Positions 2,579-43,273 of a stretch of 64,000 nt of DNA are shown here, piece after piece. Source of the DNA: Desulfobacula sp. (GTDB lineage Bacteria > Desulfobacterota > Desulfobacteria > Desulfobacterales > Desulfobacteraceae); contig JAWSVH010000116.1 in the NCBI GenBank assembly GCA_033852015.1, positions 2,356 to 66,355 of the forward strand. The letters are read 5' to 3'. The notes under the pieces were generated by a model. It was not told the origin of the DNA. It worked only from the letters and a program-made list of their open reading frames with translations, and did not search any database. The translations under genes were made by a program, and so were the position numbers. How positions within the stretch are numbered: position 1 is the first letter of the stretch; each line of letters starts with the position of its first letter.

Positions 2579-4930
2579 TTATTTTTGTTTTAAATCCATA
2601 TATGTTTTTAAACTGTTCGAATAATCCAGATCTTCCTGTTCTGTTGAAAAAAGTCTGTACCTGCTTGCTGTTCTTTCAAGATTGAATACAGACAATAAAT
2701 ATTCATAGACAGATGTCAGTGCCCCGAGTTTTGTATTCAAGGCATCACTTTGAGCATTAATCAGTTCAGTAATTGAAACCTTGCCTTTTGCATAGGATTC
2801 TTGCACAAGATCAAGGCTTTTTTTAGCATAGTGATTAGATTCTTTGGAAGATTCAAGATTAATATATTTATTAATAACATTGAGTGCGGCTGACCTGACG
2901 TTTTCCTCTAAATTGATAACCAGGTTATCAGTCTTTTTTTTAAGCTGATTCATTTGCTTTTGTGCTTTTATCTGATTTATCCGGGTGGAACCGCCTGTAA
3001 AAATGGGCCAGGAAAGATTGACGGCCACTGTCCACTGGTCATCTTCAACACTGACTCCCGATACATCCGATCCCTTGCCATCCCGGTTAAAAATATGTGT
3101 GGTATCGCCGGTTAACGCTGCTGTAGGAAAATAGCGTTTACGTTCATAATTAAGATATTGCCTTTGAATCACCGCCATATTGGCCTCAAGTTCTTTTACT
3201 TCCGGTGAGTAGTGAAGTGCCTGGATTACTAAAAAATCAACCAATTTCTCAAAAGTTGCCGGATTATCGATATATTCATATGTCCTGATATTGGAATATG
3301 TTTTAAACAAATCTCCAGTCAAGGATTCATCCTTAACTGCAAGATCGCTATCCAGAGGGCGGTGCATTAATTTATTCAAACTTATTATACTCAATTTATA
3401 TGCATTCATTGCCTCAAAAAGGCCGGATGTCGCTGTTGCAATTGAGCTTTGCCATCGATATACATCCGATGCGCCCGAATACCCGGCCACTTGACGCTGT
3501 TTGGCGATTGCCAGATACCGCTTGGTTAATTCAAGGTCTTTCTTTTGTATCATGGCACGAGTTTTTGCCTTCAATAGACCAAAGTAAGCTTCAAGTGCAT
3601 TATAAATGGTATCCAGATAAAGGGCTTTATGGGATTCTTTCCTGGCTGTTAATACATTGTCATTCACTTGCACACTGGTGTTCAAATCATCAGAAAATAA
3701 CACTTGTTCAAGTTTCATATTCCCGGATGTGGTTCTCTGGGCCTGCTGCCCGCCTGAATTTTGGGCACGGTCTTCATCAATAATGGTCTGGGTGGCATTG
3801 GCGGAAAGGGAAGGATAATAGCCTGATTTTGCCAAATTTAAATCTTCAGCAACCAAATCCATATCATCCTCTGAAATCTTAAGATCGAGATTCTCTTTAA
3901 GCGTTTCACTAACCACTTGCTCAAGTGTCATCATTTCTGTATTCGAATCAACCAGTTCATTTACGACGTGGGCACGTGCCAGGATAGAAAATTTGGGTGA
4001 AAAATCAATTTTTTTGGCCGCTTGAATATTAATAGTCAATTTTTCTTCGAAATCAAGATGTAACGGCAAGGTAGAAAAATTTTCCCCATTTATTGATGCC
4101 TCGATATTCAGTGCAATCCGCCTAACTATTTTCACAAGGCTTTCTTCCGGTGATATCGATGCCAGTACGCCTGCATCAATATCTTTTAATGATGAACCGA
4201 ATGAAGGGATTTTTTTCTTTGCCAGATGCGCAATAAGCTCTTTTTTGGGTGCGCCTTCAAACCGGCCCATATTGCCGAGAAAAGCAGCATCAAATTCATG
4301 CGTTTTTTTAAGAGCATCATCAATGCCATCCTTTAGGCCGATAATGGAAAATTGTGCATTGTTCCCGTGAACCAGACGCTGAATGGGATCGGTGTTTTTT
4401 ACAACAGCCGCGATAATATTCTCATCTGCTATGATGGCCACTTTTTTGTATGGGTATACTTCTTTAAAAACTTGAAGATCTCTTTTTAACGACTGATTAA
4501 ATAATATATAGGTCAGATTATGAACATTGGATTGATTGTTGGGCTGTATTTTAAGTCCCTGGATTTCCGGTTCTATAATACCCACTGCAATGGTCGGTTT
4601 TTTAAAGCGCTTATTTTCAATAACAGCGCCGCTGGACAAGACTCCGAATGCAATGATCAGGTTGACATTTAGATGTTTTTCAAGAAACGCATAATGATCC
4701 TTGGCTTTTTGAAATTGCCCGTCTGAAGATAAAATTAATTGATCTGAAAATTGAACCTTACCCGGCAGTAATGCATGGATTTCCTTTTGCAAATCCTGAA
4801 TCAATCCTGCTGAATCAAAGCGTGTATCATCCAGAATGATACCCGGTTTTATGATTGTTGTCCCTGAATATGCACAAATTGGAATAAATATTATATAAAA
4901 AATAACAATAACCAATTTTATTAATTTCAT
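2579..4930 (-). CDS. TolC-family outer membrane efflux protein with an N-terminal ABC-substrate-binding-like (PF04392-type) domain, 783 aa
   Basis: The C-terminal ~440 aa has the TolC/OEP repeat character (..LNLAKSGYYPSLSANA.., ..WPIFTGGSTRINQIKAQKQ..). The N-terminal ~335 aa resembles ABC_sub_bind periplasmic binding proteins (..KKVAIIADEN.., ..KKIPSFGSS..DAGVLASISPEE.., ..LTINIQAAKKIDFSPKFSILARAHVV). AGGAGA RBS. Confidence 0.8.
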   Translation of the reverse strand: MKLIKLVIVIFYIIFIPICAYSGTTIIKPGIILDDTRFDSAGLIQDLQKEIHALLPGKVQFSDQLILSSDGQFQKAKDHYAFLEKHLNVNLIIAFGVLSSGAVIENKRFKKPTIAVGIIEPEIQGLKIQPNNQSNVHNLTYILFNQSLKRDLQVFKEVYPYKKVAIIADENIIAAVVKNTDPIQRLVHGNNAQFSIIGLKDGIDDALKKTHEFDAAFLGNMGRFEGAPKKELIAHLAKKKIPSFGSSLKDIDAGVLASISPEESLVKIVRRIALNIEASINGENFSTLPLHLDFEEKLTINIQAAKKIDFSPKFSILARAHVVNELVDSNTEMMTLEQVVSETLKENLDLKISEDDMDLVAEDLNLAKSGYYPSLSANATQTIIDEDRAQNSGGQQAQRTTSGNMKLEQVLFSDDLNTSVQVNDNVLTARKESHKALYLDTIYNALEAYFGLLKAKTRAMIQKKDLELTKRYLAIAKQRQVAGYSGASDVYRWQSSIATATSGLFEAMNAYKLSIISLNKLMHRPLDSDLAVKDESLTGDLFKTYSNIRTYEYIDNPATFEKLVDFLVIQALHYSPEVKELEANMAVIQRQYLNYERKRYFPTAALTGDTTHIFNRDGKGSDVSGVSVEDDQWTVAVNLSWPIFTGGSTRINQIKAQKQMNQLKKKTDNLVINLEENVRSAALNVINKYINLESSKESNHYAKKSLDLVQESYAKGKVSITELINAQSDALNTKLGALTSVYEYLLSVFNLERTASRYRLFSTEQEDLDYSNSLKTYMDLKQK

Positions 4931-9306: not shown

Positions 9307-9774
9307 TTAACAATGAAACAAAAAATATTTTCCTAGATCATCATAATGTTCTGAATTCGAAAATTCACAACCAATTTTCATATCAGATATAATCTTTTTT
9401 ACTTTAACCTGGCGCACTATTTTTGAATGATGATGATCATCCAGAATAAATTCAAGTTCTATCTTCTGTCCGATTTCGAAAGAAAGTTTCTGAACTAGAC
9501 AAACCTTCATACCATGCTGAGAAATATCTTCAACTACGATCTCATGTTTTCCAGTATCCGACTTCATGTATCCAGACAGACATACATTTTTTCTTATCGA
9601 ACGTCGCCGCTCAAGGTCCACAGAAAAAGCGTGGCCACACCGACATTTATATTTCAATCTTATCTTTGACTTGTGTCCAATAAACTTTGATACATCTTTG
9701 TTCTCTGACTTCCCACATTCAGAACAGGGAAATACTGCTGTCACTTTTGATGTTACATACACTTTTAAAGCCAT
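9307..9774 (-). CDS. PilZ-domain protein with N-terminal Cys4 zinc-ribbon-like motif
   Basis: CSEC...CRC pairs at the N-terminus. PilZ signatures RRRSIR (RxxxR) and DISQHG (D/NxSxxG). AAGGAA RBS. Confidence 0.8.
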   Translation of the reverse strand: MALKVYVTSKVTAVFPCSECGKSENKDVSKFIGHKSKIRLKYKCRCGHAFSVDLERRRSIRKNVCLSGYMKSDTGKHEIVVEDISQHGMKVCLVQKLSFEIGQKIELEFILDDHHHSKIVRQVKVKKIISDMKIGCEFSNSEHYDDLGKYFLFHC

Positions 9775-9940
9775 GACACTAAGTTCCTTTTCAACAGAAT
9801 AACGCTTGCATCTCTTATAAGATATCTATATCGAAAAAAACAAGTCTTAAAAGAGAAAGGATGACTTTTTTTGATTTATATCAATGTTATCTATATAAGA
9901 GGTATGATAACATGAGAGTAAAAAAAGGAAATATCATATA

Positions 9941-11158
9941 ATGATTGACATAAAAGAGCTCAAAGATTCAAACGAATTTTTAAATATATTAATGCAGAAT
10001 ATTGACACGGCCGTTTTTATTGCAGATGAAAATCTGCGCATACACCAATTTAACGACAGCTTTCTAACTTTGTTTAATCAATCAACTTCAACGTCAAATC
10101 TTGTGGACATCACTTTTGGATCTGCATCTGGATGTATTAACGCAGTAAAAGAGAACCTACCATGTGGTGAAACCTCCGCTTGCCAATTTTGTGTTATTAA
10201 ACAATCTCTTATAAATACGTTAGCAACACAAGAGCCACATGAAAAAAAGTTTCTCGAACGTATTTTCTATGTTGAAGGCAGTCCTGTAAAAAAATATCTA
10301 GAATTTACATCCCGCCCCATCACCTTTAGGGATAAAAAAATGATTCTGGTCTTTGTATATGATGTCACCAAAATCGAATTATCAAAAATTCAACTCGAAG
10401 AAAAGCAAAAACAAATTGATATTGATCTGGAAAAAGCCGGTGAAATACAAAAACATCTTTTGCCCAAAAATGTTCCAAATATCCCATCCATAAGAGCAGA
10501 CTGGTTCTTTGAACCCTGTCTCGCTGTTGGAGGAGATATCTTCCATATTTACAAAGAAGATGAAACCCATGTCAGCGCCTATATGCTGGACGTCTGCGGA
10601 CATGGTGTCTCTGCCGCCCTGATCGCGGTCACGGCAAAGCAATTTTTAGATCAATTGCATGCCCAGGCCCTTGAACAGGGATATCCTTTCCCTCCGGAGA
10701 AAATATTAAATGCCCTGGAAGAGGAGTTCCCATTTGAACGATTTGATTGCTATTTCACTATTGCTTATGTCTTGCTTAATGTAAAAACCGGAAAGATAAT
10801 TTATGGCTGTGCCGGCCATGTACCCCCGCTTATTATCGGGCCGAATGATCACTTTGAGGTTTTGGACAAGCATGGTACGATTATCGGGTTAGGTCAGGAT
10901 CCACCTCTATCACAATATGAAGCCCAATTAAATCACGGAGACAAGATAATCCTCTACACAGATGGTTTAATCGATTACTTTGGAGAAAAAGGTGCCGTAG
11001 GAAATAAAGACAATTTTTATGCTGCTTTACAACGCATGGCTAACAAGCCTGCATACCAGATCGTCGACAGCATCATAGCAGAACAAAAAAAATTCCAGGA
11101 CAAACAACACACAGATGATGACATCACACTTCTGATAATTGAGTACACTGGAATTTAA
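9941..11158 (+). CDS. PP2C-type (SpoIIE/RsbU family) serine phosphatase with N-terminal PAS-like sensor carrying a Cys cluster
   Basis: C-terminal GGDIFHIY...YMLDVCGHGVSAAL...LYTDGL...DDITLLIIE motifs are typical of SpoIIE/PPM phosphatases. The N-terminal PAS-like region contains C-x9-C-x5-C-x2-C. Confidence 0.85.
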   Translation: MIDIKELKDSNEFLNILMQNIDTAVFIADENLRIHQFNDSFLTLFNQSTSTSNLVDITFGSASGCINAVKENLPCGETSACQFCVIKQSLINTLATQEPHEKKFLERIFYVEGSPVKKYLEFTSRPITFRDKKMILVFVYDVTKIELSKIQLEEKQKQIDIDLEKAGEIQKHLLPKNVPNIPSIRADWFFEPCLAVGGDIFHIYKEDETHVSAYMLDVCGHGVSAALIAVTAKQFLDQLHAQALEQGYPFPPEKILNALEEEFPFERFDCYFTIAYVLLNVKTGKIIYGCAGHVPPLIIGPNDHFEVLDKHGTIIGLGQDPPLSQYEAQLNHGDKIILYTDGLIDYFGEKGAVGNKDNFYAALQRMANKPAYQIVDSIIAEQKKFQDKQHTDDDITLLIIEYTGI

Positions 11159-30342: not shown

Positions 30343-31119
30343 ATGAAAATTCTGGTTTGTATAAAACAGGTCATGGAATCTGGTTCACCAATTAAGATTG
30401 ACCCCTCCGGAAAATGGCTGCAATATTCACAGTCCACTCGATTTGAAATAAACAAATACGATGAATATGCCATTGAAGAAGCCATCCAAATAAAAGAAAA
30501 TTTTAAAGATACACAGATTGATGTCATTACGGTAGGCCCCTCCCATGCATCTGATGTTTTACGCAGAGCCCTTGGAATGGGTGCAGATGAAGCGATCCAT
30601 ATCTTAGATGAAGCAAAGGGATATCGCCCTCCAGCGATTACAGCTGAATGGATTACAGCTTTTGTAAAAAAAGAGACCTATGACCTGATCTTTACGGGAA
30701 TCATGTCCGATGATGAAATGAATGCCCAGACCGGCGTGATGATTAGCCAGATTCTTGACTGGCCATGCGCTACGGCTGTCATCAAAGAAGAGATTTCAAA
30801 TGACCGAAAGAAAATGCGTATCGAACGAGAGATAGAGGGCGGTGCAAAAGACATATTTGACATCACACTGCCATGTGTGTTGACCATCCAAACCGGTATC
30901 AACACCCCCAGATACCCTTCTCTATCAAAAGTTTTGAGAGCAAAGAAAAAAACGCTTCAAATAATCCCGGCGAAAACACTAAAAACAGCGGAACAAATAC
31001 CCAGCCTTGAAACCATTCAATTCCCTGAAAAAACAACCCGGGGTATTGTATTAAAAGGAAGTAGCCAAGATAAAGCCAAAGCGCTTTTGAACATATTGGC
31101 TTCAAAAACACTGGTATAA
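30343..31119 (+). CDS. etfB: Electron transfer flavoprotein, beta subunit
   Basis: MKILVCIKQV... start (ATG 30343), ..NKYDEYAIEEA.., ..DLIFTG..SDD.. are typical EtfB blocks. Confidence 0.9.
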   Translation: MKILVCIKQVMESGSPIKIDPSGKWLQYSQSTRFEINKYDEYAIEEAIQIKENFKDTQIDVITVGPSHASDVLRRALGMGADEAIHILDEAKGYRPPAITAEWITAFVKKETYDLIFTGIMSDDEMNAQTGVMISQILDWPCATAVIKEEISNDRKKMRIEREIEGGAKDIFDITLPCVLTIQTGINTPRYPSLSKVLRAKKKTLQIIPAKTLKTAEQIPSLETIQFPEKTTRGIVLKGSSQDKAKALLNILASKTLV

Positions 31120-31133
31120 GCAAAGGCAGACCT

Positions 31134-32138
31134 ATGACAAAAAAAATCACAATTATAGCAGACCATGACGGAAAAAATATAAAACCCATCACCTGGGAAT
31201 TATTTGCCTTTGCAAAAAAAATACAAGCGCATGAAAAAGCAGATATCTATTTTTTCATTATTGGAGAAAACACCAAAGAACTTGCCCAGGATATAAGCAT
31301 TCATTCCGGATGCAAAACATATGCGATGGATGTCTTGGGCACCAATAATTATCATGGCCAAATCTATAAAAAAATACTGATACCGTTTTTAACAAAAAAC
31401 CCCGCTGACTATATTCTGGTTCCACACACCACATCGGGAATGGATTATGCGCCCGCCCTTTCCATTGCCCTTAAAGGTTCCTGCATCACTGCAGTAGAAG
31501 GGATACATAATAAAGATAATGTGCTACATTTTGTCCGTGCCATGTTTGGCAGAAAAATCCAGGCAGATCTTTCAAACAAAAATCTTGGTGCATCCTCCCC
31601 CCAGGTCCTTACACTTCAAGCGGGTTCGTTTAAACCATTTAAGCTTGACCAAAATGACATTAAAAATATCAATATCATCCATGAAGCATTCGACTGTCTT
31701 GAAAAAGAGATGATATATAAAGGATGTCAGCCTTCGCCTTCCAAAGGATCAAATCTTGCCAAGGCTGAGGTGATTGTTTCAGGGGGCAGAGGAATTGAAG
31801 AGGAAGAAAATTATAAATACATTGAAATGTTAGCAGACATCTTTCCCAGGTCTGCCACAGGCGCATCCCGGCCAATCTGTGACTATGGATGGGCCAAATA
31901 CAGTCAGCAAGTCGGGGCCACAGGAACAATAATCTCCCCAAAACTCTACATTGCCTGCGGTATTTCCGGTGCAACCCAACATCTTGAAGGAATAAGAGAT
32001 TCACAATTTATTGTTGCCATAAACTCAGACCCAGATGCACCCATCTTTCAAGTCGCTGATATCTGTATTATTGAAGACCTAACCGATTTCATACCCATTA
32101 TAGTCGAGACCGCAAAAAAAAAGCGCCCGACAAATTAA
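31134..32138 (+). CDS. etfA: Electron transfer flavoprotein, alpha subunit
   Basis: C-terminal FAD-binding block VSGGRGI...GASRP..D.GW....QVG.TG..I.PKLYIACGISGATQHL.G......IVAIN.D..APIF..AD. Confidence 0.92.
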   Translation: MTKKITIIADHDGKNIKPITWELFAFAKKIQAHEKADIYFFIIGENTKELAQDISIHSGCKTYAMDVLGTNNYHGQIYKKILIPFLTKNPADYILVPHTTSGMDYAPALSIALKGSCITAVEGIHNKDNVLHFVRAMFGRKIQADLSNKNLGASSPQVLTLQAGSFKPFKLDQNDIKNINIIHEAFDCLEKEMIYKGCQPSPSKGSNLAKAEVIVSGGRGIEEEENYKYIEMLADIFPRSATGASRPICDYGWAKYSQQVGATGTIISPKLYIACGISGATQHLEGIRDSQFIVAINSDPDAPIFQVADICIIEDLTDFIPIIVETAKKKRPTN

Positions 32139-36666: not shown

Positions 36667-36714
36667 CAAAAAAAAAGCTGGAAAGATTCTTATGTACAAA
36701 GAATCTTTCCAGCT
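36667..36714 (-). terminator. Rho-independent terminator after hcp
   Basis: AGCTGGAAAGATTCTT / AAGAATCTTTCCAGCT 16-bp perfect stem, 7-nt loop, followed on the minus strand by a 9-10 T run. Confidence 0.8.
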
Positions 36715-36742
36715 TTATAGTCAAGTTTTATTTCTTAGATTA

Positions 36743-38500
36743 CTATCCCAAAATTTTCTTCAAATCACCCTCTGGTGTTCCAATAGGAGTTAGATTATAA
36801 TTTTTCACCAATATATTCAATACATTTGGCGTAACAAAGGCTGGCAAAGATGGTCCCAAATGGATATCTTTGATACCAAGCTTAAGCAGACTATAAAGAA
36901 TAGCGACAGCTTTTTGCTCATACCAGGAAATAATGAAAGATAAAGGAAGTCCATTGACATCAGTATCAAATGCTTTGGTCAATGCCACTGCAATTTGAAC
37001 TGCAGAATGAGCATCATTACACTGTCCCACATCCAAAAGTCTTGGGATACCGTTGATATCACCCAACTGGTGTCTAAAAAATTTATATTTTCCACAAGCC
37101 AGCGTCAGAACGATACTATTGTCCGGTGTTTTCTCAACAAATTCAGTATAATAATTACGAGATTTTTTAACGCCATCACATCCACCAACCAGAAAGAAAT
37201 GCCCGATGGAACCGTCTTTTACACCGGCCACAATTTTATCGGCCACACCAAGAACTGCTTTATGCCCGAAGCCTGTCAAAACTTCCATGTCTTTTTTATC
37301 TTCTGCATAACCAGGCAATTCTAACGCTCTTTCAATCAGCGGCCCAAGATTATTTTTGTTCAGATGGGTAAGTCCTGGCATTCCGACAGTACCTGAGGTA
37401 AAAACATTTTTCTTATAAGATTGTTTTGGTTTCTGAATACAATTGGAAGTCATCAGAATGGCGCCTGGGAAATTAGCAAATTCTTTTTTCTGATTTTGCC
37501 AGGCAGTGCCATAATGACCATAAAAATGAGGGAACTGTGCTTTTAATTTTGGATACCCATGCGCCGGAAGCATCTCACCATGTGTATACACAAAAATGCC
37601 CTTGCCCGCACTGGCTTTCAAAACAGCCGCAAGATCAATATAATCATGACCGGAAACCAAAATTGCTTTCCCTTTCTTGACACCTAAAGGAACTTTTGTG
37701 GGCACAGGATCACCATACGCCCCACTATTACCAAGGCTTAAAAGCTCCATGGCCCGAAGGTTTTTCTCACCACACTCTAAAACCAAACCAAGATAATCAT
37801 TTGCGCCCAATTTTCTATCTTCAAGGGCAGCAAGACCCCGATGAACAAATTCATAATTACCTTCATCTTCCTGGCCGTGCTCTGCAGCATGATCCGTATA
37901 AGCTGCCATCCCTTTGATACCAAAAAGAAGCATATGCTGAAGAGACTTTAAATCTGGATCGATTGCAGGACCAGACATAAGACCATATTGTTTGCCTTGT
38001 TTAATCATACCCTCTAAAGAAGGCTTAAGTTTTAAAGTCAAACTGTCACTATCTGATGAGATAGTACCACCAGCCGCTTTTACACGTTTGATCATCTTAT
38101 CTCTAAGAGCTACAGATTCCTGAAGAAGATCTTCAAATCTATAGGGGTCAAATTCTACATTGGTCAACGTTGAGAACATGGCCATACAGGTAAACTGGTT
38201 GGTTTGAGAATCACTTATCTTTACCTTTCTTCCGGCAACAGCAGCAATAGAAAGCCCTTTAAGGGTATGAATTAAAAAGTCTTGAAGCGCTGCAACATCA
38301 GGTGTTTTCCCGCAAACACCAATCCGGGTACATCCTTTACCACCCATGGTCTGCTCGCACTGGTAACAAAACATTGCTTTTTTATCAGTAGCAGCAAAGG
38401 CTTTGTTGGCTGTCAATATGGAAGGTAGCAAAGCCGATGCAGCAAGCCCCATTGTACTGTTTTTAATGAATTTTCTTCTTGATACGCTTTTCTTTTTCAT
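36743..38500 (-). CDS. hcp: Hybrid cluster protein (hydroxylamine reductase) with an N-terminal twin-arginine (Tat) signal peptide
   Basis: Mature part begins ..MFCYQCEQTMGGKGCTRIGVCGK (Cx2Cx8Cx5C) and the length is typical of Hcp. It is preceded by MKKKSVSRRKFIKNSTMGLAASALLPSILTANKAFA-AT (SRRxFIK, hydrophobic core, AxA). Start at ATG 38500 follows GGAG. Confidence 0.9.
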   Translation of the reverse strand: MKKKSVSRRKFIKNSTMGLAASALLPSILTANKAFAATDKKAMFCYQCEQTMGGKGCTRIGVCGKTPDVAALQDFLIHTLKGLSIAAVAGRKVKISDSQTNQFTCMAMFSTLTNVEFDPYRFEDLLQESVALRDKMIKRVKAAGGTISSDSDSLTLKLKPSLEGMIKQGKQYGLMSGPAIDPDLKSLQHMLLFGIKGMAAYTDHAAEHGQEDEGNYEFVHRGLAALEDRKLGANDYLGLVLECGEKNLRAMELLSLGNSGAYGDPVPTKVPLGVKKGKAILVSGHDYIDLAAVLKASAGKGIFVYTHGEMLPAHGYPKLKAQFPHFYGHYGTAWQNQKKEFANFPGAILMTSNCIQKPKQSYKKNVFTSGTVGMPGLTHLNKNNLGPLIERALELPGYAEDKKDMEVLTGFGHKAVLGVADKIVAGVKDGSIGHFFLVGGCDGVKKSRNYYTEFVEKTPDNSIVLTLACGKYKFFRHQLGDINGIPRLLDVGQCNDAHSAVQIAVALTKAFDTDVNGLPLSFIISWYEQKAVAILYSLLKLGIKDIHLGPSLPAFVTPNVLNILVKNYNLTPIGTPEGDLKKILG

Positions 38501-38587
38501 TTCAAAACTCCTAATGTTAAATGATAAGCGCCCCATCTTGAGGCATTTGTTTAAAAACCACTATGCAAGAAAAAAAGAATAGTTTCA

Positions 38588-38601
38588 TTGATCTAAATCA
38601 A
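38588..38601. promoter_or_regulatory. Perfect FNR/CRP-family (HcpR-type) palindrome TTGATCTAAATCAA upstream of hcp
   Basis: Exact match to the FNR consensus TTGAT-N4-ATCAA, centred ~94 nt upstream of the hcp ATG. A CATAGT -10-like hexamer lies ~31 nt downstream on the minus strand, as expected for a class II site. Confidence 0.55.
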
Positions 38602-38873
38602 GTTTTATATTCTTTTTATAAAAAATAAATAATCTGCCGGACCTAATAGAAATAACCTAAGACGAACCTTCCTTGCGATTCTATGCTCCTTGAGCGAAGA
38701 GAATTAGAATCGCATAATTAATTCACAAATATTATACGAAAAATACAAAATTCACAACCGTTTGTACAATTTTCTCCACAACAAACAGTCTTATTATTAC
38801 CTTGAAATCATTTCCATGTTTTTCTATAACCTTATTAACCAACAGAGATTGTGATAAAAGAGGACTCAAATTC

Positions 38874-41800
38874 ATGAATGTGTTGCATTCAAAACTCCAG
38901 ACACCCAAGCGATACGATATTCTCCAACGGGGACGGCTCATTCAATATTTTGATAATATTCATCAAAAGAAACTGACAACTGTAACTGCCGGGGCAGGTT
39001 ATGGAAAAACCACCCTGGTCATGGATGCGCTGGCAAGTCATGAGTTTGCTTCTATATGGTACAGACTGGATGAACAAGATACAGACTTTTTAGTGTTTAT
39101 TTCTTACCTGTATTCTGCAATCGGACAAACAATTCCCAAATCAAATTTAACAAAACAAACCGATACCCTGCTTGAATGGCTCTGCCTTCTGGAAAAAACA
39201 ATCCTACACCAGACTGTCATTATTTTCGATGATTATCATCTGGTCCAGGACAACCAGCAGATCAATCAAGCCATTGAATTTATCCTTGATCGTCTACCGG
39301 CTCATATTCATCTGGTCATCATCGGTCGAAAAAATCTGAACTTGAAATTATCCGTTCTCAGAACACGAGAACTTTTAATGGAAATCAGCGAAACTGATCT
39401 GACTTTTACTCCCGAAGAAATCAAACTTTTTTTTACAAACTCACAGGTTTTAAATAATACACACATACAAGACATCCATTCAAGTACCGGGGGTTGGGTG
39501 GCCAGTCTGGTCCTCTTAAAATATACGTTTAATAAAAAAATACCCGGGGCTGTTTCCAAAAATCTAAAATTAATTAAACAGACCCCGGAATATGTTTTTT
39601 CATATCTGAAAGAAACCATTTTTGACACCCAGCCAGATCACATAAAAACATTCATGATGAAGGCTGCCCTTCTTACAGAAATAGATACCGGTTACTGCAA
39701 TAAAATTTTTGACATGGACAATGCACAATCCATATCAAACCAAATGATCCAGGATCATCTGATGATCTTCCCAGTGGATGAATCCGGGACCTTGTTTTAT
39801 CTGCACCATTTGTTCAAAGATTTTTTGATCACCCAACTTGAAAAAACCTTTTCATCATCTCAGATCCAACAATTGCATTGCAAAATTGCACAACAAATAG
39901 AAGCAGACGATATTTTTCAGGCGCTGCACCATTACATTGAAGGCCACGCCTTTGATGACGCTATCCAACTTGTTAAAACCCATGAAATGAAAATTTTATT
40001 GGAAGGTAAAATGAATTTTTTCAGCCAATGTCTGAAAAAAATACCCAAAGCAGTTATTGAACAAAATCCACAATTGCTGCTGGCCCAGGCAAGACTCTAT
40101 TCCAATTTTGGCGATCCCCGGCAGGCCATGGAAAAACTGACCCGGGCACACCTGTTGTTCAAAAAACAAAACGCCAAAGAAAACATGGTCACCTGCCTGA
40201 TTGAATTGGGCACCCAATATTATCTTACCGGACACCTTAAAGAAGCTAAACTCCTTATGGAACAGGTATTAGATGATATAAAACCGACATCCAGCACCTA
40301 TATTATCACCATGACCTTTCTAACCTTTTTATCCGCAGTTTTAGGCGAGTATAAGACTGCAGAATCACACTTTAACGCTGCCTGGGAACAGATCGAAAAC
40401 TTCCCTGATTTTGAACGCAGATTTTCAACGGCAGCGATCAACACGTCTTACTCTCATACCCTTTATTTTAAAGGAGAATTTGAAACATCTCAAAAATTTA
40501 ATGCCAAACTGCTCAAATCAGTGCTTGAACTTAATTTTGAACTGTGCCTACCGCTTGTCTACTATCAAATCAGCGCCACCAGTTTCTACTCAGGCAAATT
40601 TGAAAAAGGATTTGATGCCGGACAAAAAGGAATTGAAATCTGCGAAAAATTATCTCTTTTAGATAGCAGAAAAGCCTGGAATTATCTGGCCTGGGCCCAG
40701 AACTGTATAGGACTTGGAAAACTGGAACACGCCGCAGAATTGATAGACAACAGCATAGAACTGTTTGAAGATCCGGGCAATCGCTGGGGCATGGCAAGTG
40801 CCTTGGAATGCCAGCATTTGATTTACCTGGCCCAGGGCAAACCTGCTCCGGCCCGAAAAATTTTAAATCGTGCAATTGATATCATCGATGGCTATGGACT
40901 GCTGCCAACCGAAGGCATGCTTGAAAACAGCCTTGCCAATCTTTTGATCATCAACAAAGAGCATGCTGCTGCCCTGAACTGTCTTAAAAATGCCCGGCCA
41001 AAACTTGACGGAACCCAATATCACCTGTTCAACAATCATCTACTCACCGCCAAAACCCTTTTTGAGCTTGATCAAAGACAACGTGCAACAGACCATCTGT
41101 CAAGCGCACTAACTCTCGCACAAAACAACACCTATGATCGGTTTGTTATCAAAGAAAAAGAATGGCTGATCCCTATTATAAAAGACCTGCTGTCCAAAAA
41201 AACAGCACAAAATAAAATCCCCATACCCTATATCAAAACCCTTTTTCAAGATGATCTGGCAAACCCACCCGCTCTATTAAAAATCAAATTGCTAGGCCAA
41301 TTTAAATTAACCATCGATAACCAAAATATCCCCTTATCCCAATGGAAAAGTTCAAAAGCCCTGATGATTTTAAAGTATCTTGCTGCCAATCGGCAAAAAG
41401 GCTTTATCCCCCGAGAGGTCTTGATAGAAATGCTCTGGCCCGAACAGGACATGCAAAAAACCAGCAGTCGCTTTAACATGGCCATGAGTGCATTGCGAAA
41501 GACGCTGGAACCTCAACTTGCCCCAAAAGCACCTTCTTTATATATTGAACGCAAAAAAGATATGTATGCGCTTTACCAGGATACAAGAATTAACATCGAC
41601 GTTGAAGTTTTTGCCCAAACCATTGCAATCGCACAAAAAGAAGAAAGCACCTCTAAAAAAGGGCTTGCAACCTACCTTACCGCCCTATCCATTTATAAGG
41701 GAAAGTTTCTTGCAGAAGACCTCTACGAGGAGTGGTGTATTCAGCAACGGGAACAATTTTCCACCGACTATTTAAAGATGCTCAAAGAAATCATCGCAAT

Positions 41801-42032
41801 CTACGAGGCCCAAAAGGACCTTGAAAAATCGATTTTCTATACAAAAGAAATATTAACTGCCAATCCTTATGATGAAGGAGCCTTTAAAAGACTAATGATC
41901 TTCTTCTCTCAATCAGGCAACCTGTCCCGGCTCAAGCAAACTTATTCTGACTATAAAAAAATGACCCGACAAATCGATTGCCCGATCAGTGATGAAATAA
42001 AAAATATGTACCATGATCTGACCTCAATTTAG
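38874..42032 (+). CDS. STAND (MalT-like) NTPase - TPR-like helical repeats - C-terminal SARP-type winged helix + BTAD transcriptional regulator
   Basis: MalT-like N-terminus MNVLHSKLQTPKRYDILQRGRL..TAGAGYGKTT (Walker A), VIIFDDYH (Walker B), long helical repeat middle. C-terminus LLGQFKL...WKSSKALMILKYLA..REVLIEMLWPE...ALRKTLEP (OmpR/SARP wHTH) plus YKGKFLAEDLYEEWCIQQRE...ANPYDEGAFKRLMIFFSQSGNLSRLKQTY (BTAD). Start ATG 38874 after AGAGGA. Confidence 0.85.
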   Translation: MNVLHSKLQTPKRYDILQRGRLIQYFDNIHQKKLTTVTAGAGYGKTTLVMDALASHEFASIWYRLDEQDTDFLVFISYLYSAIGQTIPKSNLTKQTDTLLEWLCLLEKTILHQTVIIFDDYHLVQDNQQINQAIEFILDRLPAHIHLVIIGRKNLNLKLSVLRTRELLMEISETDLTFTPEEIKLFFTNSQVLNNTHIQDIHSSTGGWVASLVLLKYTFNKKIPGAVSKNLKLIKQTPEYVFSYLKETIFDTQPDHIKTFMMKAALLTEIDTGYCNKIFDMDNAQSISNQMIQDHLMIFPVDESGTLFYLHHLFKDFLITQLEKTFSSSQIQQLHCKIAQQIEADDIFQALHHYIEGHAFDDAIQLVKTHEMKILLEGKMNFFSQCLKKIPKAVIEQNPQLLLAQARLYSNFGDPRQAMEKLTRAHLLFKKQNAKENMVTCLIELGTQYYLTGHLKEAKLLMEQVLDDIKPTSSTYIITMTFLTFLSAVLGEYKTAESHFNAAWEQIENFPDFERRFSTAAINTSYSHTLYFKGEFETSQKFNAKLLKSVLELNFELCLPLVYYQISATSFYSGKFEKGFDAGQKGIEICEKLSLLDSRKAWNYLAWAQNCIGLGKLEHAAELIDNSIELFEDPGNRWGMASALECQHLIYLAQGKPAPARKILNRAIDIIDGYGLLPTEGMLENSLANLLIINKEHAAALNCLKNARPKLDGTQYHLFNNHLLTAKTLFELDQRQRATDHLSSALTLAQNNTYDRFVIKEKEWLIPIIKDLLSKKTAQNKIPIPYIKTLFQDDLANPPALLKIKLLGQFKLTIDNQNIPLSQWKSSKALMILKYLAANRQKGFIPREVLIEMLWPEQDMQKTSSRFNMAMSALRKTLEPQLAPKAPSLYIERKKDMYALYQDTRINIDVEVFAQTIAIAQKEESTSKKGLATYLTALSIYKGKFLAEDLYEEWCIQQREQFSTDYLKMLKEIIAIYEAQKDLEKSIFYTKEILTANPYDEGAFKRLMIFFSQSGNLSRLKQTYSDYKKMTRQIDCPISDEIKNMYHDLTSI

Positions 42033-42106
42033 TCAAAATTTAGTCGTATAAAATATACTCCTGTTATTATAAGTTTCATTGACCAGACAAAAAGAGGAAA
42101 AAGACC

Positions 42107-43273
42107 ATGCTTGAACTTGCCCTGAAAGGGAACAGGACTTATTGGATATGGATTGGAGGATTACTGGCTGTGATACTGGCAGGCGCACTGTTTTATGCAG
42201 ATCAACTCAGCTATGGATTGATGGTTACCGGACAAAGCCGGGACGTATCCTGGGGATTTTATACTGCCCAGATGACCTATTTTGTCGGTGTGGCTGCAGG
42301 TGGAGTAATGCTTGTATTGCCCTATTATCTACACAATTATAAAGAATTTGGAAAGATCACCATTCTGGGCGAATTTTTAGCTGTCGCCTCGATTGTCATG
42401 TGCCTGCTCTATCTTCTGGTTCACCTGGGCCAGCCCATGCGGGCGTTAAATGTCTTTCTTCATCCAACCCCCGGCTCTATGCTCTTCTGGGATGGCAATG
42501 TCCTGTTTAGCTATCTAATTTTAAATATCATTATCGGATGGAATATCTTAGAAGCTGAACGAAACGGTGTCTCCCCTCAATTCTGGATCAAGCCATTAAT
42601 CTATTTATCTATTCCCATGGCCTTTTCGATCCATACCATCACTGCATTTGTTTATTGCGGCATGCCCGGCAGAGGATTCTGGCTGACAGCTGTTCTAGCC
42701 CCAAGGTTTCTGGCCTCGGCATTTGCAGCAGGCCCTGCCATCTTAATTATCCTGTGCATGTTCATCAAGAAAATGACCCAATTTGATCCTGGGAAAAAGG
42801 CCATCCAGACGCTTGCCATCATCGTTGCCTATGGCCTTATCGCCAATGTGTTTTTCCTGGTTTGCGAAGTCTTCGTTGTTTTTTATTCCGGCATCCCCTC
42901 CCACATAGCTCACATCAAATATCTTTATGCAGGCTTAAATGGTCAAGGTGTGCTTGTTCCCTGGATGTGGACATCAGTCTTCTGCATGATGCTTGCCATT
43001 ATTCTTCTGATCATACCCATGACAAGAAAAAACAATCTTATACTGCTTTTTTCCTGCATACTTGTCTTTGTAGGCACTTGGATTGATAAAGGTCTTGGCA
43101 TGATTGCCGGCGGATTTATACCCTCTGCCCTGCATCATGTTACAGAATATGTCCCCACTTTACATGAGTTGGTAATCTCAGCCGGGATAACTGCCATTGG
43201 CTTGTTGATTTTAACCATACTGTTCAAAATCACCATCAGCATCAAGGAGTATAACCAATCCGGGACTGTTTGA
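42107..43273 (+). CDS. NrfD/PsrC-family polytopic membrane protein (quinol-interacting subunit type), without adjacent partner subunits
   Basis: 388 aa, about 10 predicted TM helices. N-terminal pattern YWIWIGGLLAVILAGALFYADQLSYGLMVTGQSRDVSWGFYTAQMTYFVGVAAGG resembles NrfD-like anchors. AGAGGA RBS. Confidence 0.8.
   Translation: MLELALKGNRTYWIWIGGLLAVILAGALFYADQLSYGLMVTGQSRDVSWGFYTAQMTYFVGVAAGGVMLVLPYYLHNYKEFGKITILGEFLAVASIVMCLLYLLVHLGQPMRALNVFLHPTPGSMLFWDGNVLFSYLILNIIIGWNILEAERNGVSPQFWIKPLIYLSIPMAFSIHTITAFVYCGMPGRGFWLTAVLAPRFLASAFAAGPAILIILCMFIKKMTQFDPGKKAIQTLAIIVAYGLIANVFFLVCEVFVVFYSGIPSHIAHIKYLYAGLNGQGVLVPWMWTSVFCMMLAIILLIIPMTRKNNLILLFSCILVFVGTWIDKGLGMIAGGFIPSALHHVTEYVPTLHELVISAGITAIGLLILTILFKITISIKEYNQSGTV

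Follow-up and report, generated by a model that had tools for sequence, protein, structure and literature searches.

Is hybrid cluster protein (Hcp) in some sulfate reducers an exported enzyme? Models of nitrosative-stress defence put Hcp in the cytoplasm. The question is raised by an hcp gene of Desulfobacula sp. (assembly GCA_033852015.1, contig JAWSVH010000116.1, positions 2,356-66,355 of the forward strand; this stretch of 64,000 nt is hereafter the window), for which an earlier reading of the sequence (the original prediction) proposed a twin-arginine translocation (Tat) signal peptide and control by an FNR-type box. We compared the gene with those of 401 genomes of the same class and with a phylum sample of 401 genomes from 255 genera, and the Hcp family was searched among 1.84 billion cluster representatives with HMMER. 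The reading that we favour, at a probability of roughly two in three, is that of a Tat-exported, soluble, periplasmic class-I Hcp that performs the chemistry of its family and is transcribed from an FNR-type promoter.

A translated and conserved Tat signal peptide

The gene lies on the minus strand, where the longest open reading frame (ORF) runs from 36743 to 38536 and would give 597 residues. A Shine-Dalgarno sequence precedes the ATG at 38500 (Table 1) and all homologues begin at the equivalent MKKK. Therefore, the gene was taken as 36743-38500 and its product as 585 residues, the length originally predicted. It had also been claimed that only this upstream ATG has a Shine-Dalgarno sequence, and this too is borne out. 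Such a site recurs at the upstream ATG of every orthologue, and no GGAG-like site was found before the internal ATG (Met43) of the window hcp, where the sequence is ACTGATAAAAAAGCAATG.

The residues that precede the methionine of MFCYQCEQT are MKKKSVSRRKFIKNSTMGLAASALLPSILTANKAFAATDKKA. The original prediction was right that the usual Hcp N-terminus is preceded by an extension, although it put the length at 44 residues and the correct figure is 42. This extension matches the NCBIfam model TIGR01409 (TAT_signal_seq) at 24.5 bits (cut-off 16.7, E 2.3e-5); no Tat-signal match was found for it in Pfam, the NCBIfam model alone giving a score. Its n-region, MKKKSVSRRKFIK, is positively charged and contains the twin arginines R8 and R9 (38474-38479) within a motif, S7-R-R-K-F-I-K13, that fits the consensus S/T-R-R-x-F-L-K. 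By inspection, the h-region, STMGLAASALLPSIL, is moderately hydrophobic, about 15 residues long and rich in Gly, Ser and Thr, and it is followed by a c-region, TANKAFA, with a basic K33 and a small-x-small site, a pattern kept across the signal-bearing homologues. Signal peptidase I is predicted to cut between AFA and A, after residue 36 (38393).

The same architecture, in which [ST]RRxF[IL]K is followed by a hydrophobic core and then by a small-x-small site, was present in approximately 105 of the 120 closest database homologues (66-91% identity), most of the others being truncated at a contig end or called from the internal methionine. Across 36 diverse members M1, R8, R9, F11 and Met43 are invariant, and S7, K13, P26 and A36 are conserved at 90% or more. 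Moreover, the extension varies between 41 and 45 codons in 27 distinct genomic copies, and every change of length is in frame. Pairwise nucleotide differences among these copies number 5475, 2913 and 8340 at the first, second and third codon positions. The excess at third positions and the restriction to in-frame length changes show that the extension is translated and under purifying selection, as expected of the Tat signal that had been predicted. An assembly artefact or chimera as the source of the extension was ruled out by more than 100 independent sequences. AlphaFold2, run on an alignment of 36 sequences, assigned residues 1-40 a predicted local distance difference test score (pLDDT) below 50 and folded the chain confidently from about residue 43 onwards (mean 79, predicted template modelling score 0.81).

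Several entries in the NCBI database begin at the internal methionine and are annotated with 543 residues. These are the metagenome-assembled genome (MAG) entries MCK5204961.1 and MCF8089439.1/MCF8137385.1 (P0279, P0306) and also P0033, P0090 and P0101. The RefSeq entry of Desulfotignum balticum retains the signal (586 residues). The Tat signal is thus hidden in several entries because annotation starts at the internal methionine, and the lesson for annotation is that such starts mask the signal in this clade.

A complete class-I enzyme

All three Hcp models, NF003658 (743.5 bits, cut-off 367), TIGR01703 (700.5 bits, cut-off 360.8) and PF03063 (508 bits), cover residues 43-584, so that the Hcp domain is complete and its usual N-terminus is internal, as had been noted. 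The closest solved structures are the class-I Hcps 1gn9 (E 1.2e-143, end to end), 8cnr and 1e2u; the class-II structure 7de4 matches too, and in each of these the sequence opens with the Cys motif. The ligands of the [4Fe-4S] cluster are C45, C48, C57 and C63 (positions 3, 6, 15 and 21 of the mature domain), whose spacing, C-x2-C-x8-C-x5-C, is that of class I, without the 4-residue insertion of class II (classes as defined in PMC10210160). Those of the hybrid cluster are H285, E309, C354, C441, C469, C494 and E528 (one His, two Glu and four Cys, the persulfide Cys included); H285, E309, C354 and those further along the chain line up with H240, E264, C308 and their successors in 1gn9. None of the 11 ligand columns varies among 26 signal-bearing and 79 signal-less relatives. 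With its catalytic residues intact, the protein would be expected from its family to have nitric oxide (NO) or hydroxylamine reductase activity. A further 36 positions are specific to the signal-bearing clade, some of them just past the persulfide cysteine, and they bring no net shift in charge.

A single, narrow clade

Hcp was found in 353 of the 401 class genomes, and a full-length match (residues 1-585, 66-100% identity) in 22 of the 401. The next-best matches in class genomes are signal-less, at most 65% identical and aligned from about residue 40. The carriers belong mainly to the window's own family (4 genera), mostly to Desulfobacula and Desulfotignum, with three genomes in other families. 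The spread is patchy, with 6 intact copies among the 29 genomes of the window's genus. Three further class genomes hold fragments or a stop-containing copy (G237:C31:4140-5877, G294:C5:455956-456960 and G119:C35:36955-37929), in which the signal-bearing hcp is split in two, interrupted by a TGA or truncated where a contig ends. The split or interrupted gene in these three related genomes may reflect decay in some lineages or a problem of assembly.

The phylum sample added one carrier, a MAG with 6% contamination in which the copy sits on a contig of 4.5 kb. In other orders, signal-like matches (G652, G773, G664) were discarded as read-through of non-coding DNA with stop codons. The Hcp family comprises 5881 representatives found by HMMER, and none of the best 150 of these carries a Tat signal; the N-terminally extended proteins among these 150 resemble eukaryotic targeting peptides or flavodoxin fusions. 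A distant representative of 544 residues (P0224) begins with MKVNFIIFLFFISLSLFPSFNS before MFCFQC, a start that resembles a Sec or endoplasmic reticulum-type signal. Therefore, other routes of Hcp relocation may exist. Named records with the Tat signal are MAGs of Desulfobacula, Desulfotignum, Desulfobacter and Desulfobacterium, together with WP_156887692.1 of the cultured D. balticum.

A maximum-likelihood tree of 114 sequences, built from mature domains only, places the signal-bearing Hcps in one clade (Shimodaira-Hasegawa-like approximate likelihood ratio test 100, stem 0.27) surrounded by class-I Hcps without a signal, from Thermodesulfobacteriota and other anaerobes. Since a single change explains the trait on this tree, the signal was gained once. 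The signal peptide is thereby established as real, translated, conserved and of single origin. Had Tat-signal Hcps been a common, already described class, this would have told against the original prediction; instead, they form one narrow clade. No description of a periplasmic, Tat-dependent or signal peptide-bearing Hcp was found in the full-text literature, which does not include two subscription-only reviews (Hagen 2022, van Lis 2020). Papers that mention both Hcp and export terms take Hcp as cytoplasmic (e.g. PMC10210160).

Expression in relatives

No RNA runs containing this genome were found, the window being present in two DNA runs only, from a plastisphere metagenome. The orthologue of D. 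balticum was the reference for transcript contigs (coordinates of its locus: ATG 1501, mature Met 1630, stop 3259). Metatranscriptome contigs from salt-lake and sediment studies begin at 1472 and 1474, which is 27-29 nt before the signal ATG, and continue unbroken across the signal-coding part into the body of the gene. Before position 1428 contig depth is approximately 0-3, whereas across the gene it is 100-260, and coverage ends at about 3267-3288. This coverage fits a monocistronic mRNA with its 5′ end upstream of the signal ATG. In the window, an intrinsic terminator lies directly downstream of the stop codon (Table 1), which likewise points to a monocistronic signal-bearing hcp. Many metagenomes from oil fields, wastewater and sludge contain near-identical copies of the Desulfotignum gene (runs X9-X23).

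A proposed FNR/HcpR-type promoter

The perfect palindrome that had been reported about 94 nt upstream of the hcp ATG (distance to its centre) was recovered at that place. In the window 2 matches were found against 0.44 expected, and in the genome 33 against about 12 expected from base composition, and the palindrome alone is weak evidence for regulation. It gains significance from its recurrence in the promoters of orthologues, 24 of 27 of which have a box with no more than one mismatch ahead of the signal ATG, at 73-105 nt and in two cases at 169-178 nt, where a rough estimate of chance expectation is 0.02 such boxes per 250-nt region. Moreover, a TATGAT, TATAGT or CATAGT hexamer is found at the same 22-nt offset from the box in nearly all of these promoters. 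The arrangement suggests FNR-type geometry of class II, which centres the box near -41.5 and predicts a transcription start near 38553. The FNR/HcpR-type control that had been proposed for this gene is thus supported by the geometry of the promoter and by its conservation.

The original prediction stated that no CRP/FNR-family gene is in the window. This is correct, but the genome does encode one clear member of the family, its only one, on another contig and beside a signal-less hcp (C82, about 31010-31703). The protein combines cNMP_binding and HTH_Crp_2 domains with a recognition helix of the FNR-type E--SR form (TPETVSR) and contains no cysteines; lacking the FNR cysteine cluster and being linked to hcp, it is of HcpR type. 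A box, TTGATCCAAGTCAA, stands 85 nt upstream of the signal-less hcp, and one identical to that of the signal-bearing hcp precedes a flavodiiron protein gene (C11:6835-8070). Similar boxes are found before a hemerythrin-domain gene (C19:2680-3243), an AhpD-like gene and a universal stress protein (USP) gene. Since the promoter of the signal-bearing hcp shares a regulon with the flavodiiron protein and the other hcp, NO stress is indicated.

Two other boxes were observed. One precedes C29:27063-29493, where a COX2-like cupredoxin gene is followed by that of a large Fer4_5 membrane protein, a pair of unassigned role. The other is a second perfect palindrome in the window, TTGATTTATATCAA (9871-9884), between a PilZ gene (9307-9774, minus strand) and a PAS-SpoIIE phosphatase gene (9941-11158, plus strand); it may belong to the same regulon as hcp.

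Table 1. Features of the signal-bearing hcp locus, in window coordinates.
Feature	Position	Strand	Remarks
FNR/HcpR-type palindrome TTGATCTAAATCAA (TTGATTTAGATCAA on the strand of the gene)	38588..38601	.	Ends 87 nt before the hcp ATG
-10-like hexamer CATAGT	38560..38565	-	22 nt downstream of the box; predicted
Shine-Dalgarno AGGAG	38508..38512	-	7-nt spacer to ATG 38500; GGAG-type sites at the upstream ATG in 27/27 orthologues
Signal peptide, codons 1-42	38375..38500	-	TIGR01409 above cut-off; conserved
Mature class-I Hcp domain, Met43-Gly585	36746..38374	-	Family models and structure alignment
hcp stop codon	36743..36745	-	ORF call
Intrinsic terminator, 18-pair stem then T run	36674..36716	-	27 nt past the hcp stop codon

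Cellular and genomic context

The genome (4.47 Mb, 93% complete) encodes the machinery that the predicted export would call for, judged on TatC (C137:9322-9960, 245 bits). Fourteen ORFs, 13 besides hcp, combine a strict Tat motif with a hydrophobic stretch after it. Read from sequence rather than by a family scan, one of these is hydrogenase small subunit-like and two (771 and 862 residues) are of the size of molybdopterin oxidoreductases. Moreover, there are 16 cytochrome c3-family matches in about 10 ORFs. With TatC, Tat substrates and c3-type cytochromes all encoded, both export machinery and periplasmic electron carriers are available. A cytochrome c3-family ORF adjoins tatC (C137:8555-9960).

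The second Hcp of the genome (C82:29206-30849, 547 residues) has no signal and is about 42% identical. In the same operon, downstream of it, are genes for a Zn-ribbon/HD protein, a 4Fe-4S protein and an NIR_SIR-ferredoxin protein; the divergent regulator lies opposite, and operon and regulator together span C82:26798-31703. The flanks of the window hcp are of another kind, with a TetR regulator, a 4-hydroxybutyryl-CoA dehydratase-like gene, an acyl-CoA dehydrogenase, an electron transfer flavoprotein (ETF), a MalT/BTAD regulator and an NrfD-like gene. Divergent from hcp (38802-43273) are a 1076-residue AAA/MalT-TPR/BTAD-type regulator and then an orphan NrfD-family membrane protein (42107-43273), which has no adjacent Fe-S or cytochrome subunit. 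No conserved gene stands next to the signal-bearing hcp, and a dedicated partner gene was rejected since the flanks in the window and in relatives all differ.

Proposed function and its alternatives

Given its conserved twin-arginine export signal, the signal-bearing Hcp is probably periplasmic. Its export and cleavage are what we infer from the data, as are its electron donor, its substrate and its inducer. The apoprotein would gain its [4Fe-4S] and [4Fe-2S-2O] clusters and fold in the cytoplasm. The Tat translocase would recognise SRRKFIK and export the folded Hcp, and signal peptidase I would probably cleave after AFA36 to leave a soluble periplasmic enzyme. There Hcp would most likely reduce NO to nitrous oxide (N2O) and/or hydroxylamine to ammonium, with electrons from a periplasmic redox pool of c3-type cytochromes fed by Tat-exported hydrogenase and formate dehydrogenase. 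Transcription would start from the class-II FNR-type promoter, the probable activator being the cysteine-free HcpR-type regulator beside the second, cytoplasmic hcp. If one HcpR-type regulator acts on both hcp genes, then both compartments would be protected by a single nitrosative-stress regulon, as we propose here. The most economical account may be one in which the known NO and hydroxylamine chemistry has been relocated to the periplasm and draws its electrons from the general pool of cytochromes.

A number of observations weigh against a soluble periplasmic Hcp. No Tat proofreading chaperone or redox partner is encoded near hcp. The periplasm is the more exposed compartment, and the hybrid cluster is sensitive to oxygen. 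In surface charge the mature domain differs little between signal-bearing Hcps and their signal-less sisters, with isoelectric points (pI) of 6.8 vs 6.3 and no significant difference in net charge; cysteine counts, uncorrected for shared ancestry, are 10.5 vs 12.1. Adaptation of the mature domain to its compartment was rejected on these figures, the differences in pI and charge being weak and the lower cysteine count suggestive at most. The transcript data are assembled contigs from near relatives (90-99% alike), and DNA can be present in libraries of this kind. Moreover, because the methionine of the mature domain is invariant, internal initiation could yield a cytoplasmic form. The same methionine is also internal in Desulfovibrio desulfuricans Hcp by structure alignment, which suggests a structural reason for its conservation.

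A bolder proposal is that Hcp goes beyond stress defence and serves as a periplasmic terminal reductase, linking the oxidation of H2 or formate through the cytochrome c3 pool to the reduction of external NO or hydroxylamine. We regard this as unlikely, yet its consequences would be considerable. Some Desulfobacteraceae (Desulfobacula, Desulfotignum) could consume NO and hydroxylamine at oxic-anoxic interfaces, in marine plastic biofilms and in nitrate-treated oil reservoirs, these bacteria would be an unrecognised source of N2O or ammonium, and a first physiological electron donor would be identified for a class-I Hcp.

That Hcp is exported by Tat but left uncleaved, its signal staying as an N-terminal anchor (as in Rieske proteins) and holding the enzyme beside a membrane-bound donor, seems quite improbable. 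The c-region is not strictly AxA everywhere (variants ARAK, ADAK, VAAE and VSAK), a soluble partner gene was not found nearby, and the first cluster cysteine follows the predicted cut at a distance of just 6-9 residues, all of which would suit an anchor. However, most members have small residues at -1 and -3 (AFA, VFA, AFG, SFA) with A36 conserved at 90% or more, and cleaved Tat signals typically have such a short core (about 15 residues) in which Gly, Ser and Thr abound.

We hold similarly strong doubts that an exported Hcp has another role, be it as a peroxidase, in reducing some other small oxidant or in clearing intermediates released by the periplasmic nitrite reductase NrfA. NrfA is encoded by 11 of the 22 carriers vs 9 of 55 non-carriers (Fisher p = 0.004, uncorrected for shared ancestry), and in Desulfotignum it lies 17-22 kb from hcp on the same contig. 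Neighbours in relatives also include AhpC, Ni-SOD and rubrerythrin, and some of the clade-specific positions just after the persulfide cysteine could be read in the same way. An obligatory link to NrfA was nevertheless rejected, for it is absent from this genome (93% complete) and from half of the carriers. Furthermore, the cluster ligands are unchanged, and the regulon shared with the flavodiiron protein and the other hcp points to NO stress.

It is very unlikely that Hcp remains cytoplasmic, whether by starting mainly at Met43, by dual localisation or through a non-transport role of the extension (a cofactor-insertion checkpoint or membrane association): the invariant Met43, the 543-residue starts that the NCBI pipeline gives to several orthologues (MCK5204961.1, MCF8089439.1) and the cytoplasmic location of all characterised Hcps (PMC10210160) speak for it, but a conserved Shine-Dalgarno sequence precedes Met1 and none precedes Met43, purifying selection acts on the RR, F and K positions as well as on the hydrophobic core, a Tat motif that fits the consensus and exceeds a curated cut-off would hardly be retained if the protein were not exported, a cytoplasmic Hcp with ferredoxin partners of its own is already encoded in the genome, and the 543-residue annotations are homology-based choices of start and not evidence.

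Significance

Hcp is widespread in anaerobes, but what it does physiologically and what supplies class I with electrons are still debated (PMC10210160). The sequence data presented here support a conserved, clade-restricted and apparently exported form of this known enzyme, present in the cultured species D. balticum. If this is true, defence in some sulfate reducers extends to the periplasm, or respiration takes place there. This compartment is the site of their hydrogenases, formate dehydrogenases and cytochromes. Export would narrow the donors to periplasmic carriers and therefore makes the donor question testable. Nitrate and nitrite are applied against sulfate reducers in oil-field and wastewater settings, where close copies of the gene are common.

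Comparison with known systems

The Hcp-Hcr system of Escherichia coli (class II, 7de4), a high-affinity cytoplasmic NO reductase, belongs to the same family and probably performs the same chemistry, and its induction by nitrosative stress is what the promoter box predicts for the window hcp. However, E. coli hcp is under FNR/NsrR control and not HcpR, and hcr was not seen at the window locus (the rest of the genome was not searched for it).

The Tat-exported Fe-S enzymes of sulfate reducers, such as the [NiFe] hydrogenase small subunit, formate dehydrogenase and HybA-type ferredoxins, similarly have S/T-R-R-x-F-L-K ahead of an Fe-S protein that carries its cofactor, and substrates of this kind are encoded in the genome of the window. 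In contrast to the window Hcp, which stands alone, they are usually accompanied by maturation or escort proteins and by partner subunits.

The HcpR regulon described in delta-proteobacteria (Rodionov et al. 2005, PMC1274295) resembles the present one in having a cysteine-free CRP/FNR regulator divergent from hcp and a ferredoxin gene, and FNR-like palindromes upstream of hcp paralogues and further redox genes. Its published consensus is wyTTGACnnnnGTCAArw, whereas the half-sites here are mostly TTGAT/ATCAA or TTGAT/GTCAA. Moreover, one member of the present regulon is predicted to be exported; signal peptides are not mentioned in PMC1274295.

The closest known counterparts are the class-I Hcps of Desulfovibrio desulfuricans and Desulfovibrio vulgaris (1gn9, 1e2u/1w9m) and of Methanothermococcus thermolithotrophicus (8cnr), which the window Hcp matches over the full length of the domain (E 1e-143 to 1e-132). 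These proteins start at the Cys motif and are cytoplasmic, whereas the window Hcp has a conserved 42-residue Tat signal and belongs to a clade of its own, with no more than 65% identity to the nearest Hcps that lack a signal. A cytoplasmic location is common to the characterised Hcps but lies outside the definition of the family, and it is in this respect that the Hcp of the window is predicted to depart from them.

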